A stretch of DNA of 64,000 nucleotides from a virus (Duplodnaviria; Heunggongvirae; Uroviricota; Caudoviricetes), in the IMG/VR virus record IMGVR_UViG_3300046491_000064, positions 40,060 to 104,059 of that record; one strand, 5' to 3'. The notes beneath the pieces were generated by a model. That model was given only the letters and a program-made list of their open reading frames with translations, had not been told where the DNA came from and did not search any database. Shown piece by piece: positions 28,575 through 63,300 of the stretch. Numbering within the stretch: the first letter of the stretch is position 1; each line of letters starts with the position of its first letter. A program made the translations under genes and the position numbers.

Positions 28575-28602
28575 ATTCTATACCGTTGGTCAGGCTTGTC
28601 AA
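28575..28602 (-). promoter_or_regulatory. leftward sigma70 promoter TTGACA-16-TAGAAT
   Basis: -35 complement at 28597-28602, -10 complement at 28575-28580. Confidence 0.5.
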
Positions 28603-28608
28603 CCCCTA

Positions 28609-28637
28609 TTGACAAAATCGTTTGAGGTCTGTAGAAT
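28609..28637 (+). promoter_or_regulatory. rightward sigma70 promoter TTGACA-17-TAGAAT (divergent partner)
   Basis: -35 28609-28614, -10 28632-28637; -35 hexamers of the two promoters are 6 bp apart. Confidence 0.55.
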
Positions 28638-30750: not shown

Positions 30751-31130
30751 ATGGTGATTTGGTAAGAATCATCGGTGGTGAATGGCATGGGTTTGATGCT
30801 GTCGTAATTGATGCGGGTGAGTCGTCATCGAGGGTTCAGGTTGGCGGTGCCGACTGGGGGCAGCAACGGGCGGTGTGTTTCCATGTGAGAAACAATCACC
30901 TTCTTATCCGAGATGAACCAAACGGTTTTATTGTAGATGGAAGGGTTGACACGAAAGCACAAGATGAGTATCATGAGCGCCTTCGTCTGATTACACCACC
31001 TTACAATGATGACGAAGAGGATGAATATTCTCAATATGAGGACTGGACAAACACGGATTTGATTGATAAGATCATCTCGCTCGAATCGAAGCTGTTAAAG
31101 CTTCAGCAAGAACTTGACGGTCTTCTGTAA
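30729..31130 (+). CDS. hypothetical protein (acidic, C-terminal coiled coil)
   Basis: 133 aa. Confidence 0.45.
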   Translation: MAYRKLVDGDLVRIIGGEWHGFDAVVIDAGESSSRVQVGGADWGQQRAVCFHVRNNHLLIRDEPNGFIVDGRVDTKAQDEYHERLRLITPPYNDDEEDEYSQYEDWTNTDLIDKIISLESKLLKLQQELDGLL

Positions 31131-31138
31131 AATAGTTG

Positions 31139-31167
31139 TTGACAGACGGTAGTGACAAGCGTATAAT
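31139..31167 (+). promoter_or_regulatory. perfect consensus sigma70 promoter TTGACA-17-TATAAT
   Basis: -35 31139-31144, -10 31162-31167. Confidence 0.6.
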
Positions 31168-31176
31168 GCGCAACAT

Positions 31177-31303
31177 GATGTAGTGATGGAATTGGTAGAC
31201 ATATGCGACAAGCCCTACCTGTTTACAGGTCCAAGGTCCGGCACCAGAACGGATGCATAAAGGGAACTCGCTGGTATTATGGGTTCGACTCCCATCTATA
31301 TCA
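31177..31303 (+). ncRNA. tRNA-like structured RNA (possibly a tRNA gene with a ~47-nt insertion)
   Basis: 7-bp acceptor-like helix GATGTAG/CTATATC; tRNA-Leu-type D arm (TG ATG GAATTGGTAGA CAT); canonical T arm ATGGG-TTCGACT-CCCAT; long-range helix TATGC/GCATA; about 19-nt variable region; 127 nt overall, too long for a canonical tRNA. Confidence 0.35.
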
Positions 31304-31325
31304 TCCAATTATGAAAGGAGAAGTT

Positions 31326-31538
31326 ATGAAGGTTTCGCAAGATGAAAAGGTGTTTAGACCAATTACAATTGTTATTGAGTCTGAAGCAGAGCTTGACTAT
31401 TTGTATGCATTGAGCAATAGCTCAACAACGAGCGTGCAAGAGGCAGCTGAAAGTATTGGTATTGTTTTGGCTAAAGATGATAGCCTGCAAATGAACTTCT
31501 ACTATGCTATGTCTAAAGCAAAACAAGACAGCCTGTAA
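31326..31538 (+). CDS. hypothetical protein
   Basis: AAAGGAG RBS 5 nt before ATG 31326. Confidence 0.45.
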   Translation: MKVSQDEKVFRPITIVIESEAELDYLYALSNSSTTSVQEAAESIGIVLAKDDSLQMNFYYAMSKAKQDSL

Positions 31539-31565: not shown

Positions 31566-32462
31566 GTGATGTTTAAGAAGTTGATTGGTATTGTAGTGTT
31601 GGGTATGACTCTGGCACTTAGCGGTTGTGGTGAACGCGTGGAAGTTCCACCGGGCTTTGTTGGTAAGATCATGACCAAAGATGGTTATCAGGAAGGTCTG
31701 ATTCCAACTTCGAAACTGCGTCTACCATTCTGTAATGCTTACTGTGATCGTCTTGTTGTTCTGGACACCACGGACAAGTCGTATGTTGAGCAAATGGCTA
31801 TCTTCATTCCGGGTGATAAGCTGATTGTAAATGTCGATCTGCGTGCAACTCTGTCGGTTGATCCAACTAAGGCAGAGGCAATGTTTAATAAGCTGCCACA
31901 AGTACCTGAGAGTGATCAGTTCAGTAAGATTACTGCTGAATCGATCTACAGTACATATGGTAAACAAGTATTGCAGGCTGAAGTTCGTTCTTACCTGACT
32001 CGTTACACAATCTCTGAGATTGCATCGAATGGTGAGAAGATTAACGCTGACATTCAGGTACTGCTTGCAAAGGTTATGGGTGAGCGTACACCGTTTACTG
32101 TTCGATATGCTGGCTTGACCAACATCAAGTATCCTGAGATTATCACTCAGGCTCAAGAGAACAGTGCAAAGCGTCGTGAAATGATTGCTCAGGAAGAGGC
32201 ACAACTTGAAGTAAGTAAAGTTCAACTTGATCGTGAGTTGCAAGAAGCTAAGATGCAGCGTGCAATTGACAAAGAGAAAGCTGAGACTGAAGCTGTAGCT
32301 CAAACTGTTCTGGCTAATGCTGTTGATCCACGTAGTCTGCGAATCAAAGAACTTGAGATTCAAAAGATTCTGGCTGAGAAGTGGGATGGTGCTCTGCCTC
32401 AAACAATCATGGGCGGTGACGGTAAAGTTCCTCTGATCATGGACATGCGTAAACCTCAGTAA
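31566..32462 (+). CDS. SPFH/band-7 (prohibitin/stomatin-like) lipoprotein
   Basis: signal peptide with lipobox LALSGC; band-7 core followed by Glu/Gln-rich coiled coil. Confidence 0.65.
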   Translation: MMFKKLIGIVVLGMTLALSGCGERVEVPPGFVGKIMTKDGYQEGLIPTSKLRLPFCNAYCDRLVVLDTTDKSYVEQMAIFIPGDKLIVNVDLRATLSVDPTKAEAMFNKLPQVPESDQFSKITAESIYSTYGKQVLQAEVRSYLTRYTISEIASNGEKINADIQVLLAKVMGERTPFTVRYAGLTNIKYPEIITQAQENSAKRREMIAQEEAQLEVSKVQLDRELQEAKMQRAIDKEKAETEAVAQTVLANAVDPRSLRIKELEIQKILAEKWDGALPQTIMGGDGKVPLIMDMRKPQ

Positions 32463-39944: not shown

Positions 39945-40117
39945 CCGCACTGGAACTAATTGAACATCTGAAGTTTAATATTGCAGATGGTATTCAAACA
40001 TGTCACAATAACCTCAATTCTTCGACAGCAAACAGTTCTGTTGCGATAATCCTCACAGCAATAGAGCGTGCTGTCAATGCAGTTGAAATCGAAATTTACA
40101 AAGGTAATGTGAAATGA
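39941..40117 (+). CDS. small hypothetical protein (58 aa)
   Basis: ATGA coupled both sides. Confidence 0.3.
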   Translation: MTALELIEHLKFNIADGIQTCHNNLNSSTANSSVAIILTAIERAVNAVEIEIYKGNVK

Positions 40118-40443
40118 ATAGTGTGGTAATCCACGGTAACACGGTTACTGTTGACATTGAAAACATCGTTAACGTTTCAGCATTTGCTATCGACTTTGGT
40201 CTGACCGCATTTGCTGTCATGACAAGTGAAGGTAAGTGTGAAATCTCTTTCCCGATGACTGCTGATCATCATCGCATTTTTGCTGCACAGATTCATCGTC
40301 ACAACAACGAACAAAAGCTTGCAAAGAAGGGGAATAAAGGTAATAATACTGACCCTGATGGTGATGGTCCTAAGCCGACCAACCCTCGTGGTGGCGGTGG
40401 TTCCACAGTAGAATTTGAAGAAACAATCGCAATTGCTGCTTGA
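40114..40443 (+). CDS. hypothetical protein (Gly/Pro-rich C-terminus)
   Basis: 109 aa. Confidence 0.4.
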   Translation: MNSVVIHGNTVTVDIENIVNVSAFAIDFGLTAFAVMTSEGKCEISFPMTADHHRIFAAQIHRHNNEQKLAKKGNKGNNTDPDGDGPKPTNPRGGGGSTVEFEETIAIAA

Positions 40444-40468
40444 CACATATATCTGACTAGCGTATAAT
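40440..40468 (+). promoter_or_regulatory. consensus sigma70 promoter TTGACA-17-TATAAT
   Basis: -35 40440-40445, -10 40463-40468. Confidence 0.55.
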
Positions 40469-40496
40469 ACGCCCACATAAAACAAAGGAGAAACAA

Positions 40497-40649
40497 ATGT
40501 TCGGTTCATTGCTTGGTGTTGTATCTGACTTGACAAAGATTGCTGTAGCGCCTGTTGTAGTCGCAGCTGACTTGACTCGTTCAGTAACAAAGCCCGTCGC
40601 TGACGAAGTGACTGCTGCTGTAAAACAAATCCAAAAAGACTTGAAATAA
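40497..40649 (+). CDS. small hypothetical protein (50 aa)
   Basis: AAAGGAG RBS. Confidence 0.35.
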   Translation: MFGSLLGVVSDLTKIAVAPVVVAADLTRSVTKPVADEVTAAVKQIQKDLK

Positions 40650-50151: not shown

Positions 50152-50676
50152 TTGAGTTATCAGAAATACACGCCGGAAGTAAGACGATGGAATGAAGTGA
50201 TGTTAAATGCACCAAGCTTTGATCATAGTCGAGATGTACGTGATACGATGAACATTGCAAAGATCGGTCGTCAATCTAACTTTGTTATCGAAGAGGCGAA
50301 AGAGATTCGTGAAGGTTTCGAGACCACTAATGTTCAAGAGATGCTGGACGGTCACCTAGATACTCGTTTCGTTAACGATCAGATTGGTGTATACTTGGAA
50401 GCACTTGGTATTGACCTTGAGGCTGCTTGGAATGAGGTATGTGCTTCGAACAACTCCAAGTTTAGCACTGACCTAGACATGATGCTAAAGAGTGCTAAAA
50501 GTTTGACTGAAGAGCTTGGAGATGAGGTGTTAGTTCAACAGGCACCGTCTGCTGTTGGTGAGCCGACCACTTATATCCTGAAACGTACAAGTAACGGGAA
50601 GATCATGAAACCTGATTGCTTCCGTGAACCAAACCTGCGTCCATTTATTCCTAAACATTTGAGAGGTAAGCGTTAA
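50152..50676 (+). CDS. MazG-like nucleoside triphosphate pyrophosphohydrolase (putative; TTG start)
   Basis: AAAGGAG before TTG 50152; EMLDGHLDTRF..YLEALGIDLEAAW resembles MazG EEXXE/D helices. Confidence 0.45.
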   Translation: MSYQKYTPEVRRWNEVMLNAPSFDHSRDVRDTMNIAKIGRQSNFVIEEAKEIREGFETTNVQEMLDGHLDTRFVNDQIGVYLEALGIDLEAAWNEVCASNNSKFSTDLDMMLKSAKSLTEELGDEVLVQQAPSAVGEPTTYILKRTSNGKIMKPDCFREPNLRPFIPKHLRGKR

Positions 50677-51503
50677 TGACTGTTAATATTGGTGATCGTT
50701 ATAAAGTTGTTGGTGGCCTTGTAAGCTACACAGATGTATATGTTACTGACGAAATGCTTGACTCGATTTACACTGTCGTTGAGGACTCTAATGATCCTTG
50801 CTGGTTTGACTTCGAAGAAAAGACTGTTGAAATTGGTGCTGTTAAATATTGGCCCCGTGACTTTGAGAAAGTTGAAGCCTTGGATGAACATACTGTAGCT
50901 ACTCACTTTGTTACTACGGCTGTAGGTAAGATTGTTCCTAATCCTGACTTTCATAGTCTAAAGCCTAACTGGTCCATTCACATGGCTGATAGTGACAAAA
51001 GTCAGTTGTTTTACGCAGGTGATAATGGCATTACAGTTTCACCTATTGCTATGAACATTCCTCAAGAGCATGTTGATAGTGCCTCGGTAAAAAGCGCATT
51101 TGAAAGCATTCGTGGTGCTTTGGCTTCTGGTATTGCTCAGAGTAAAGCTGATTCAGAGTTGAGCACTCGGTTTGGTAATAGCTCGCTCGGTGTTTATCGT
51201 CCTAACTTGGAAGACCGTAAGGTTGGTAAGGTGCGAGTAGAACTGGTTGATCATGGTTTCCCTAATGCACTTTGGGAACTGGCTAAACTGATGACTTGGG
51301 CACAGGAAGCAAAAGGGTACAAAGACCACGACTGGAAGAATCTTCCAAATGCTAAAGCATCTTTGCGTGCAGCGGCCAGCCGTCATCGCCAGAAAGATAT
51401 CCTTGGTGAATTGATGGATGATGAAAGCGGTTTGTATCACAAGGTAAGTGAAGCGTTTGGTGTTCTGGCTGAGCTTGAACTAATGCTGACCGAATCGAAG
51501 TAA
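50676..51503 (+). CDS. hypothetical protein (nucleotide-metabolism neighbourhood)
   Basis: 275 aa. Confidence 0.45.
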   Translation: MTVNIGDRYKVVGGLVSYTDVYVTDEMLDSIYTVVEDSNDPCWFDFEEKTVEIGAVKYWPRDFEKVEALDEHTVATHFVTTAVGKIVPNPDFHSLKPNWSIHMADSDKSQLFYAGDNGITVSPIAMNIPQEHVDSASVKSAFESIRGALASGIAQSKADSELSTRFGNSSLGVYRPNLEDRKVGKVRVELVDHGFPNALWELAKLMTWAQEAKGYKDHDWKNLPNAKASLRAAASRHRQKDILGELMDDESGLYHKVSEAFGVLAELELMLTESK

Positions 51504-51572: not shown

Positions 51573-52583
51573 TTGTCTGATCAAGTAAGTGCAGTTGTTA
51601 TTGCCCATTCCAAATCTGCTGTAACCGGTCATGAAATGGTGACATTCGAGTGGGAATTCCCTCGTATCATCTTGGCTGAAGTTAATACCCACAACGCACT
51701 AAGTAAGAATGCAAGCTCTTCTCGTGCAATTCCTGTAGCAACCATCAACACACAAGTTCGTTCTGCACCAGCAATGCCCGTTCGCTTCGGTAAAGCAAAC
51801 ACAGGTATGCAAGATGCTGGTGAACATAATGAAGCTGTATTCCTGAACTTCCCTGACAATGGTTATTGCGGATACTTCACACCTCAAGATGCTTGGGCTG
51901 TTGGTTGCGAAGTAGTTGCCAGTATCTCTGATGCATTCACTGAAGCTGGTTATGCAAAACAAGTAGCAAACCGTTGGACCGAAGTTGGTCAGCGTATGAA
52001 ACAAGTTGTATCGGCTACAGACCTTGCAAACTTCTTTTGGTTGCGTGATCACCATATGGCTGATCCTACCATTGATGCTCTGGCAAAAGCTGCTAAAGAG
52101 GCTCTGGCTGCGTCTACGCCTGTGATTCTAAATCCGGGTGAGTGGCATGTTCCGTATTACAATGATGGTTATTGGATCAAGAGTAATTTCCTGAGTGTTA
52201 ATCGTGATGTAGCAATTGACAAGTTTGGTTATACACTTCAGCAAGCTTTGGACATCAGTGCTTCTTGCACTGCCCAAGTTAGTTATCGTAAGCTGGATGA
52301 CACAATGGAAAAAGCTCGTTCTGTTGTTGCTCGACTGAATCTTCACGGTGAACAACCTGATGATCCTGTACATGCAAGTCCTTTGGAACACCAAGCAACA
52401 CCGATTGCAAGAAGTGAATGTAACGATCCAAGTGATGACACCGATGGTATTAACCTGATGGACCCTTGCACATGGGAACCGGGAATTACACACAGAATGC
52501 GTGATGGTACTTTGGCATCTGGTAACCTGAAAGGGTTTATTCAGCATCGTCAACTAGTTCCGAATCATGTGAAAGAGGGTTAA
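51573..52583 (+). CDS. ThyX-like (flavin-dependent thymidylate synthase fold) protein with THN in place of RHR
   Basis: TTG start with AAAGGAG RBS; PRIILAEVNTHNALSKNASSSRAIP aligns to ThyX SR..THQLVRHR..S.R but Arg-His-Arg is Thr-His-Asn. Confidence 0.55.
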   Translation: MSDQVSAVVIAHSKSAVTGHEMVTFEWEFPRIILAEVNTHNALSKNASSSRAIPVATINTQVRSAPAMPVRFGKANTGMQDAGEHNEAVFLNFPDNGYCGYFTPQDAWAVGCEVVASISDAFTEAGYAKQVANRWTEVGQRMKQVVSATDLANFFWLRDHHMADPTIDALAKAAKEALAASTPVILNPGEWHVPYYNDGYWIKSNFLSVNRDVAIDKFGYTLQQALDISASCTAQVSYRKLDDTMEKARSVVARLNLHGEQPDDPVHASPLEHQATPIARSECNDPSDDTDGINLMDPCTWEPGITHRMRDGTLASGNLKGFIQHRQLVPNHVKEG

Positions 52584-62699: not shown

Positions 62700-63300
62700 A
62701 TTGGCGATTTTTGGGTTTTCATTTTTTATTTGAAAACCGTGGCGGGGTGCCTTTTGGATTTTGACAAATGGGGAAATCGATTTTGACATTTCCAGAAAAC
62801 GTAGAAGTCCAGAAAGTAATTTAGCGAGGCGGATTAAGAATCATTCGCATTTGATAGGGAGAATCAGACTCATTCTCAGATAGGTGGGCGAATGAGAACC
62901 ATTCGCGGAGGTTTTCTAAATCGACAGACAGTCAGGCACCCTCCCGCCGACCCCTCCGGGCTGGCATGTGACAATCATAGCAGAATCGCACACCCTGTCA
63001 ACAACTATTTTTATAAGCAAGGTTCGTGCCAGCTCCAAATGACGCCCACCCTCCCCACCTTGTACTCCAGTGTCTAGCCTATCGGCTGTCGTTCCTGCAT
63101 GTGTGTATTTTACCACAAAGCAAAGACCGTGCAACAACTATTTTCAGATTCTTTTCGCTTGACAGTAAGGCGAAACATCTGGTATTCACGCGCACCCGGT
63201 CATTCAGTAACGCAGAAAGATTCAAAAAAGATGTTGACTCCAGTTTGTAACACTGTAGAATCAGCACCATTCCCAACAAACACATTATAGGAGTGTTTAA
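62700..63300 (+). promoter_or_regulatory. long non-coding control region with dyad-symmetric GAAT..ATTC elements, direct repeats and C-rich tracts
   Basis: no credible ORF; three nearby dyads sharing a GAAT/ATTC core; GATTTTGACA direct repeat; ends with a consensus promoter. Confidence 0.4.
63234..63261 (+). promoter_or_regulatory. sigma70 promoter TTGACT-16-TAGAAT
   Basis: -35 63234-63239, -10 63256-63261. Confidence 0.55.

Follow-up and report, generated by a model that had tools for sequence, protein, structure and literature searches.

The 64,000-nt stretch of viral DNA analysed here (the window; positions 40,060 to 104,059 of IMG/VR record IMGVR_UViG_3300046491_000064), which comes from a distant relative of the Pseudomonas phages phiPMW and vB_PpS_SYP, carries at 31177-31303 a 127-nt element which, on balance, we take to be the gene for a non-decoding, tRNA-Leu-derived small RNA that would act in trans. 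Judged by sequence and folding, this element is one member of a previously unannotated family of non-decoding tRNA-like RNAs in a clade of phiPMW-like phages. Stable tRNA-like RNAs of phages are already known as a kind, and the present family is a variant not described before; we found no description of this RNA class in the literature. Coordinates given below are positions in the window, and L-numbers are labels of the viral, metagenome and genome loci that were retrieved for comparison.

The frame of the element is that of a tRNA (Table 1). The acceptor helix GATGTAG/CTATATC described in the initial annotation is present with all seven pairs formed, one of them G.U, is followed by discriminator A, and shows compensatory changes in the homologues; T8 and G9 follow its 5' strand. 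The tRNA-Leu-like D arm and the T arm ATGGG-TTCGACT-CCCAT are likewise where they had been placed, the former matching D arms of phage tRNA-Leu genes in BLAST and carrying A14, A15, G18, G19 and A20a, and the latter being paired in all 10 homologues. CCA is indeed not encoded, the bases directly 3' of the discriminator being TCC. The length of 127 nt compares with mostly 80-87 nt for phage leucine-type tRNA genes found in a scan with a D-arm pattern, and the body was correctly seen to be overlong, with approximately 45 extra nt between the D and T arms relative to the tRNA-Leu(UAA) of an Alcaligenes phage. Upstream, the claimed TTGACA-17-TATAAT promoter was located, preceded by an AAAATA UP-like tract, and is one of only two perfect TTGACA-N16-18-TATAAT sites in the window (31139 and 40440), against 0.03 expected from dinucleotide-preserving shuffles. 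Only 9 nt separate the end of the -10 hexamer from G1 of the element, and the usual spacing from -10 to start would leave a 5' leader of about 2-4 nt, shorter than the approximately 8 nt proposed earlier. A near-consensus promoter precedes at least seven of the homologues as well (L098, L099, L109, L111, L114, L096 and L236; L234 and L239 were left out of this check).

Homologous loci were retrieved with the SPFH/band-7 protein, whose gene lies approximately 260 nt downstream of the element, and comprised 21 IMG/VR and 41 metagenome loci. Nine further distinct elements were found upstream of the band-7 operon, so that with the window the family has ten members of 83-162 nt (L109, 83 nt; L098 (= L097), 102; L099, 103; L234 and L236, 105; L096 and L239, 107; window, 127; L114, 154; L111 (= L244), 162), between which the flanking DNA has diverged to 65-85% identity. 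Other routes to relatives were unproductive: blastn against 50,697 phage records matched the band-7 gene only, a query with the subfamily B described below found no element in phage records, searches of IMG/VR with both flanking small proteins and an exact-protein look-up returned nothing, and the isolated phages vB_PpS_SYP and vB_PseuGesM_254 have the band-7 operon and no tRNA-like element. The initial annotation had proposed a check with ARAGORN and Rfam. In its default mode ARAGORN reports no tRNA or transfer-messenger RNA (tmRNA) anywhere in the window and makes no call for any family member, Rfam gives nothing at the gathering threshold for the window or its relatives, and no tRNA even at E <= 10 (local, 451 nt), and the calls that ARAGORN makes in intron mode are inconsistent.

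The evidence that carries the tRNA-like reading is the covariation of the frame. Pairs were counted in the ten sequences over 15 core pairs of the acceptor, D and T stems, with shuffles and with 3' partners slid by 1-3 columns as controls. Standard pairs occupied 95.3% of core cells as opposed to 37-55% with slid partners, both sides had changed in nine of the 15 pairs, and none of 500 shuffles reached the observed pairing or covariation score, although with only ten sequences, and these mutually related, this count is not a probability. Six of the seven acceptor pairs are compensatory, the stems including GATGTAG/CTATATC, GACGCGG/CTGCGTC, GGCACAG/CTGTGCC, GACGCAA/TTGCGTC and GACACGG/CCGTGTC; the D stem ATG/CAT becomes GTG/CAC in L114; and the two outer pairs of the T stem switch between G-C and A-U and between U-A and A-U, with every T-stem cell paired. 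The D and T loops are near-invariant, with one substitution each, both in L236 (T-to-C in the D loop), variation of the T loop being confined to its last two positions. U8 and U48 hardly change, discriminator A is found in nine of the ten members, and the window element scores 77.6 bits against the family covariance model. Covariation and a conserved acceptor and T arm in homologues, on which the initial annotation had staked its proposal beforehand, were thus both found. As read from this alignment, the pattern is one of purifying selection on a tRNA-like acceptor/T/elbow fold, well beyond chance.

Such a pattern is not what would be expected of a decaying tRNA-Leu pseudogene or recombination scar carried without function in the 5' untranslated region (UTR). 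The lack of an anticodon, the silence of standard tRNA finders, the patchy presence of the element (absent in L094 and L095), the imperfections of L109 and the truncated tRNA-Leu fragments that do occur in phage tRNA regions (L031, L052 and L067) would all fit a pseudogene. However, decay would break stems, whereas here pairing has survived two-sided changes in six of the seven acceptor pairs and in two pairs of the T stem; the D and T loops have stayed near-invariant despite the divergence of the flanks; and the arm that replaces the anticodon arm itself covaries. We therefore regard a functionless relic as quite improbable.

The elements expected of a decoding tRNA outside the anticodon arm, namely the 7-bp acceptor, the D arm, the T arm and the G18G19 / U54-U55-C56 elbow, are conserved or covarying in the ten members. 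A canonical anticodon arm (a 5-bp stem and a 7-nt loop with U33, an anticodon and purine 37, at the usual distance from the D arm) was sought in all leucine-type genes of the retrieved loci with perfect acceptor and T stems. It is present in 105 of 106 genes of at most 92 nt (all but two with leucine anticodons), in four of 55 genes longer than 92 nt, and in no family member tested, L096, L109 and L236 lying outside the test owing to its perfect-stem filter. A genuine decoding tRNA could nevertheless be hidden if the anticodon loop were interrupted by a short spliced intron or insert, as the initial annotation had considered. ARAGORN in intron mode does read the window as tRNA-Phe(GAA) with a 35-nt intron, and tRNA-Leu(UAA)-like genes with a hairpin placed exactly in an intact anticodon loop, CUU[..]AAAA, exist in L015, L018, L024, L072 and L079. 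Against this, intron mode gave the eight members that it split Phe, Thr, Val, Ile, Stop, Ile, Ser and Ile, with introns of 11-73 nt at differing positions, and read L109 as Ile without an intron, so that almost every member has its own predicted combination of anticodon, intron site and intron length. In the window, the forced anticodon stem contains an A.A mismatch and U33 is lacking, L098 and L114 have the same flanks but no common 3' strand of an anticodon stem, and in subfamily B the supposed insert is a covarying extension of an arm and not a separable unit. Rfam finds no group I intron or known ribozyme, and 45-50 nt is far below group I size: there is no Intron_gpI match, and the extra sequence of approximately 45 nt in the window and 0-80 nt in the relatives compares with a group I core of more than about 200 nt. 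Nor does the removal of any single segment restore the same anticodon arm across the homologues, as protein splicing of the bulge-helix-bulge type would. Since the anticodons and introns called in intron mode disagree among members, a spliced decoding tRNA is unsupported, and we consider it very improbable.

Still less credence can be given to a protein-coding role, in which an open reading frame (ORF) at 31203-31538 would run through the element as the N-terminal extension of a 111-aa protein. The frame is open from the ATG at 31203 and in phase with the downstream gene, but the ATG lacks a ribosome-binding site (RBS), and PHROG 32527 aligns from residue 1 of the 70-aa product starting at 31326, which has a strong RBS of its own; as stated in the initial annotation, this ATG lies 23 nt past the element. 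The start of the profile match at that residue marks the element region as 5' untranslated. Moreover, homologous elements precede different genes, and their differences in length are not multiples of three. We regard translation of the element as extremely improbable.

Between the D and T arms the family is hypervariable: this interval spans 32-111 nt and is largely unalignable across subgroups. L098 and L114, for instance, have the flanks TGGGGAG and ATACCGCTGGCTTAATTGCCTTG in common, with unrelated cores of 24 and 76 nt between them, while L096 equals L111 up to the variable arm, where L111 has approximately 55 additional nt. In the window, the fold obtained with the tRNA frame fixed has an energy of -31.6 kcal/mol and pair probabilities of 0.85-0.99, and contains the ACCTG-TTTA-CAGGT hairpin noted earlier. 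The letters of the TATGC/GCATA helix that had been thought to enclose an insert are also there, but the helix is not: the first T of TATGC is already part of the D stem, and enforcing the helix gives -26.3 kcal/mol, 5.3 worse than the GCGA/UCGC and CCCU/AGGG helices, with a probability of about 0 as opposed to 0.91-0.99. The picture of an insert inside an otherwise normal tRNA is unsupported, the anticodon arm, and in some members the variable arm too, having been replaced by lineage-specific structured domains. Across the family, the enforced cloverleaf-type fold lies 0.5-3.2 kcal/mol from the free minimum in eight of the nine members folded and 5.5 in L234. No homologue with the central sequence of the window was found, including by an exact 30-mer search of IMG/VR, and comparison with approximately 50 other expanded elements gave no significant similarity (maximum z = 2.6); a likeness to L039 in TACCTGTT / AAGGGAA is within noise.

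The replacement arm is most informative in subfamily B, which was segmented manually (L096, L239, L111, L099 and L234; L236 has the same layout by eye). Here the anticodon position is taken by a 4-bp helix, a tandem G.A/A.G internal loop, a 6-bp helix and a 12-nt loop UACGGUGACAGU, in that order, after which comes a variable arm of the leucine type, its 3-bp stem capped by a GNRA loop. In all members, both helices (h1 and h2) and the variable-arm stem consist of standard pairs and show compensatory changes: the 6-bp helix reads TCAGTA/TACTGA or ATCGAT/ATCGAT according to the member, and the variable stems are GCT/AGC, GTC/GAC, TCC/GGA and ACC/GGT. That the loop UACGGUGACAGU is held while the stem below it is rewritten by compensatory changes argues, at the level of sequence comparison, that the central domain is functional, at least in subfamily B. 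Short ORFs and sequences resembling Shine-Dalgarno (SD) sites occur inside central domains, and in subfamily B GGUGA can be read with an AUG 8-9 nt on; we regard them as coincidental, since the peptides are not conserved and L234 has no SD-like sequence. As a separate observation, the 76-nt central domain of L114 (2052-2205) has a strong SD-like GAGGUGAU with an AUG 2 nt later, both of which appear from the sequence to be sequestered in a hairpin, and a 19-codon ORF (MYKSIVILAGYKQRMIPLA) that ends at the UAA of the variable-arm loop and is not conserved in other members.

Table 1. Features of the tRNA-like element and its surroundings, in window coordinates (all on the + strand).
Feature	Position	Strand	Details
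Sigma-70-type promoter	31129-31167	+	AAAATA tract 31129-31134; -35 TTGACA 31139-31144; 17-nt spacer; -10 TATAAT 31162-31167
Initial transcribed region GCGCAACAT	31168-31176	+	predicted start ~31173-31175, from -10 spacing
Acceptor stem, 5' strand GATGTAG	31177-31183	+	pairs 7/7 with 31296-31302
Leucine-type D arm ATG/GAATTGGTAGA/CAT	31186-31202	+	BLAST to phage tRNA-Leu D arms
Central domain in place of anticodon and variable arms	31203-31278	+	constrained fold
Helix GCGA/TCGC	31205-31208 / 31268-31271	+	constrained folding
Helix CCCT/AGGG	31213-31216 / 31261-31264	+	constrained folding
Hairpin ACCTG-TTTA-CAGGT	31217-31230	+	constrained folding
Second hairpin	31236-31254	+	constrained folding
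7-nt linker TGGTATT, last base U48	31272-31278	+	constrained folding
T arm ATGGG/TTCGACT/CCCAT	31279-31295	+	fully paired in 10 homologues
Acceptor 3' strand CTATATC and discriminator A (31303)	31296-31303	+	CCA not encoded
AU-rich trailer with RBS AAAGGAG (31314-31320)	31304-31325	+	no terminator-like site
First downstream gene, 70 aa, PHROG 32527	31326-31538	+	E = 7.6e-18, residues 1-66 vs profile 1-70 of 72
SPFH/band-7 lipoprotein gene	31569-32462	+	conserved neighbour, anchor for homologous loci

The origin of the frame is evident from sequence similarity, which points to descent from a phage tRNA-Leu gene with canonical tRNA-Leu(UAA) as the ancestor. BLAST of the element alone matches the D arms and T arms of phage tRNA-Leu genes, and the 85-nt tRNA-Leu(UAA) of Alcaligenes phage vB_Af_QDWS595 (L003:396-480) matches both ends, the strings in common being TG-ATG-GAATTGGTA.A-CAT and TTATGGGTTCGA.TCCCATCT. 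Canonical phage tRNA-Leu(UAA) genes (QDWS595, L257:5406-5491 and T4) have the same acceptor/D/T frame, with TTATGGGTTCGA.TCCCAT, discriminator A, A15 and U48. They are 82-87 nt long and are detected by ARAGORN; their anticodon stem has 5 bp and carries a CUUAAAA loop, and their short variable arm is capped by GNRA or UUCG. The window element lacks these anticodon and variable parts in their proper place and is missed. The distant relatives L257 and L258 have a normal tRNA-Leu(UAA) with CCA near the band-7 gene, which is consistent with descent from a real phage tRNA-Leu.

What has been kept and what has been rewritten also corresponds to the requirements of leucyl-tRNA synthetase (LeuRS). The E. 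coli enzyme needs A73, A15-U48, G18G19, A20a, G18:U55, G19-C56 and U54:A58, and needs neither the anticodon nor the long variable arm, a tRNA-Leu lacking both still being charged (PMC9976931). The window element has all of the listed nucleotides, as does essentially the whole family, and the rewritten parts are exactly the two arms that are dispensable for LeuRS. The element is thus probably a LeuRS ligand and may be leucylated, though unable to read a codon. The tRNA elbow is also recognised by RNase P, the CCA-adding enzyme and EF-Tu. Since any tRNA elbow depends on most of the nucleotides listed for LeuRS, tRNA-type processing would be the safer prediction, with leucylation a plausible further step.

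We propose the following course for the RNA. Between the host-type consensus promoter and the SPFH/band-7 operon, the element is the first feature to be transcribed. Host RNA polymerase would start 2-4 nt ahead of G1, and RNase P would recognise the stack of acceptor and T stems together with the D/T-loop elbow and remove the leader. To release the 3' end, an endonuclease would cut within the AU-rich trailer, after which either exonucleases would trim the RNA or RNase BN/Z would act; the CCA-adding enzyme would then complete the end, as for phage T4 tRNAs without encoded CCA. The predicted product is an abundant, stable, L-shaped RNA that would be present as soon as infection begins. Acting in trans, such an RNA might serve as a decoy or sponge and bind a host factor that reads the body of tRNAs, for instance LeuRS or a defence nuclease that targets tRNAs; alternatively, it might be a natural tRNA scaffold on which the variable domain is stabilised and displayed. 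Decoy and scaffold-with-cargo are our leading guesses for its function. The suggestion in the initial annotation of a tRNA-derived regulatory RNA or decoy, or of a structured non-coding RNA, fits the covarying stems, the near-invariant elbow loops and the replaced arms, the role of decoy itself standing only as a candidate.

The position of the element would also suit a cis-acting part of the 5' UTR of the SPFH/band-7 operon, either a processing signal for RNase P or RNase E that sets the 5' end of the mRNA or a base-paired 5' cap against decay that depends on the 5' end of the mRNA, in which case the released RNA would have no role of its own. The element always lies between the promoter and the first RBS of the operon, there is no terminator and the trailer is AU-rich, and the leader is very short, with the RBS approximately 10-70 nt past the element. 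However, L094 and L095 run the same operon from the same near-consensus promoter without the element, and the second perfect promoter of the window (40440) also leads straight into an RBS, 20 nt on, with no tRNA-like element between them. In L095 the same ACAAGCGTATAAT.CGCAACAT as in the window is followed directly by the RBS, with CGCAACAT sitting after its -10, and this marks the left edge of an insertion or deletion; by this comparison the tRNA-like unit has been gained or lost as one discrete piece, located between the start of transcription and the RBS. The gene immediately downstream varies among members, being band-7 itself in L098, L099 and L109 and small ORFs in the window, L096, L111, L114 and L236. 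A processing or stability signal would need neither a fixed leucine-type D loop, A73 and A15-U48 nor the conserved 12-nt loop of the extended arm, and ordinary phage tRNA genes, too, share transcripts with ORFs, as in the T4 tRNA cluster. The operons without the element, the varying first gene and the leucine-specific nucleotides together with the distal loop favour a trans-acting product, and lead us to regard a cis-acting element as unlikely.

Several points weigh against a trans-acting tRNA-like RNA, in addition to the small number and mutual relatedness of the ten sequences. The reading is drawn from sequence and folding, so that expression, processing and aminoacylation are predictions only, and as most of the nucleotides used by LeuRS are also required for any tRNA elbow, their presence is no proof of charging. 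L094 and L095, which lack the element, are among the closest relatives of the window, and the most distant member, L109, has an A.A mismatch at pair 2-71 and discriminator U. The unconstrained single-sequence fold of the window element is of unremarkable stability (z = -0.63), and support for its structure accordingly comes from the comparison of homologues and not from folding energy, and the internal fold of the window's central domain is a thermodynamic prediction. Possible partners were also sought: antisense matches of the central domain elsewhere in the window are chance 8-10-mers, no site in the retrieved loci is convincingly complementary to the conserved 12-nt loop, and none of the 30 window proteins scanned is a Ro60, RtcB, RNA ligase, CCA-adding enzyme or other tRNA-related enzyme.

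T4 RNA C is, by analogy, the closest described counterpart of the element. T4 RNA C and RNA D are small stable phage RNAs whose function is still unexplained (PMC3014915, PMC9697503). At 120-140 nt (RNA C, or species 1 RNA, has 139 nt) they are like the element in size and are made alongside tRNAs. Our reading of the sequence and fold of RNA C shows a canonical T arm, CCGGG-TTCGAAT-CCCGG, then a strand that pairs with the 5' end, so that an expanded body is framed by a tRNA-like acceptor/T domain. In contrast to the element, RNA C lacks a D arm of the leucine type, and two U.U mismatches interrupt the pairing of its ends; against the family model it scores 18.1 bits (E = 0.023), through its T-arm half only, whereas T4 tRNA-Leu scores 46 bits and RNA D gives no match. 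Both T4 RNAs are also classed as late, unlike the window element behind its host-type consensus promoter. The likeness therefore appears to be only one of functional analogy and not of homology. Engineered 'tRNA scaffold' chimeras, in which the anticodon arm is swapped for a cargo RNA, are stable and correctly processed in E. coli. They have the same architecture as the element, with an intact acceptor/T/D frame and a structured RNA in the position of the anticodon arm, but are artificial, unlike the natural element; to our knowledge no natural phage example has been described. Such an architecture would explain a freely varying central domain on a conserved frame.

Two other natural RNAs share parts of this design. 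The bacterial Y RNA YrlA has a tRNA-like domain (PMC4201824). Through D- and T-like arms this non-coding RNA imitates the elbow of a tRNA, and some YrlA RNAs are phage-associated. Both ends of YrlA lie in its Ro-binding stem and a loop closes the acceptor-like stem, which makes it permuted relative to the element. The element has no Rfam match, and neither Ro60/TROVE nor RtcB was found among the window proteins scanned. tmRNA, like the element, combines an acceptor/T domain with a large non-tRNA body, and is aminoacylated without an anticodon. It has the alanine identity pair G3.U70, no D stem, pseudoknots and a tag reading frame. The element, in contrast, has C-G or U-A at pair 3-70 and small central-domain ORFs that are not conserved, and neither the tmRNA mode of ARAGORN nor Rfam gives a match to tmRNA.

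These comparisons bear on a wider possibility, which we offer tentatively: that non-decoding look-alikes able to accept leucine form a widespread class in phages, serving either as an uncleavable decoy for anti-phage nucleases or as a scaffold with a fast-evolving effector domain. In such a class the tRNA-Leu frame would be used because LeuRS ignores the anticodon and variable arms, and the decoy could be aimed at nucleases that cut these arms, for example Septu/PtuAB, OLD or anticodon nucleases. Cleavage of tRNAs in their variable loops and anticodon arms by defence systems has recently been reported (Septu, PMC13096335; OLD, PMC12445682), and the existence of such systems makes a decoy role conceivable. 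If this is true, the expanded genes would be widespread, unannotated counter-defence or host-takeover RNAs of phages. The current view of phage tRNA genes is mainly that they make up for host tRNAs which defence nucleases have destroyed. An RNA that is kept processable and probably chargeable but has no anticodon cannot act as a replacement tRNA, which suggests that phages also use the tRNA shape in a second way, outside translation. A family with natural variants is also a comparable and tractable case for T4 RNAs C and D, unexplained for approximately 50 years, and shows which positions of the tRNA frame accept grafts of 30-110 nt. There is a gap in annotation as well: default ARAGORN and Rfam miss all ten members, and dozens of expanded genes in IMG/VR are probably unannotated too.

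Dozens of unrelated IMG/VR viral contigs carry expanded tRNA-like genes of the leucine type, 98-184 nt long and with perfect acceptor stems, and a comparable pattern was found only nine times in 185,579 bacterial and archaeal species genomes (one per species), which suggests that such genes are mostly viral. They are of several designs. In L015 (3275-3403, - strand), L018, L024, L072, L079 and L080, a tRNA-Leu(UAA)-like gene has an intact 5-bp anticodon stem with a 30-45-nt hairpin in the loop (CUU[..]AAAA), and the Rfam tRNA model aligns L015 with a 47-nt loop insertion. This hairpin occupies the site of the cyanobacterial group I intron but is far too short for group I; such genes could be a new kind of mini-intron or non-decoding RNAs of another design. 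A 116-nt leucine-type gene is identical or nearly so in L008 and at least 14 other IMG/VR contigs, and scores 39.8 bits with the Rfam tRNA model, with a 23-nt loop insertion and a 23-nt variable region. L039 (1630-1865, - strand) has two expanded genes in tandem, a non-leucine gene of 110 nt at 1756-1865 (48.7 bits against the Rfam tRNA model, relative to which it has a 49-nt insertion) and a leucine-type gene of 123 nt, with a perfect TTGACA-17-TATAAT promoter after the pair, and L078 and L053 have one second expanded element each. Leucine-type genes of 113-119 nt with perfect acceptor stems and a long hairpin at the position of the anticodon arm were also found in bacterial metagenome-assembled genomes (L276, L277/L281 on the Dehalococcoidia chromosome OZ251500.1, L278 and L284); these are either chromosomal tRNAs that require splicing or prophage-borne tRNA-like RNAs. 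In L031, L052 and L067, the truncated 5' tRNA-Leu fragments mentioned above lie immediately upstream of intact tRNA-Leu genes, which suggests partial duplications or recombination scars in phage tRNA regions.

Elsewhere in the window, 50676-51503 and 51573-52583 encode a protein with a dATP/dGTP diphosphohydrolase N-terminal domain (PF18909, 4.8e-20) and an adjoining, weakly Thy1-like protein, followed by ribonucleotide reductase genes. No PurZ-like match was found among the window proteins scanned; the gene set hints at editing of the nucleotide pool or at modified DNA. The second perfect promoter (40440-40499) directly drives a 50-aa ORF at 40497-40649 and provides an internal comparison for the promoter at 31139. 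A promoter-like site on the opposite strand (62973-63011, -) has the 17-mer AAAATAGTTGTTGACAG in common with the promoter of the tRNA-like RNA. Finally, back-to-back near-consensus promoters at 28575-28637, with 11 of 12 matches on each strand, mark a divergent transcription switch at approximately 28.6 kb, near which the sign of the GC skew flips.

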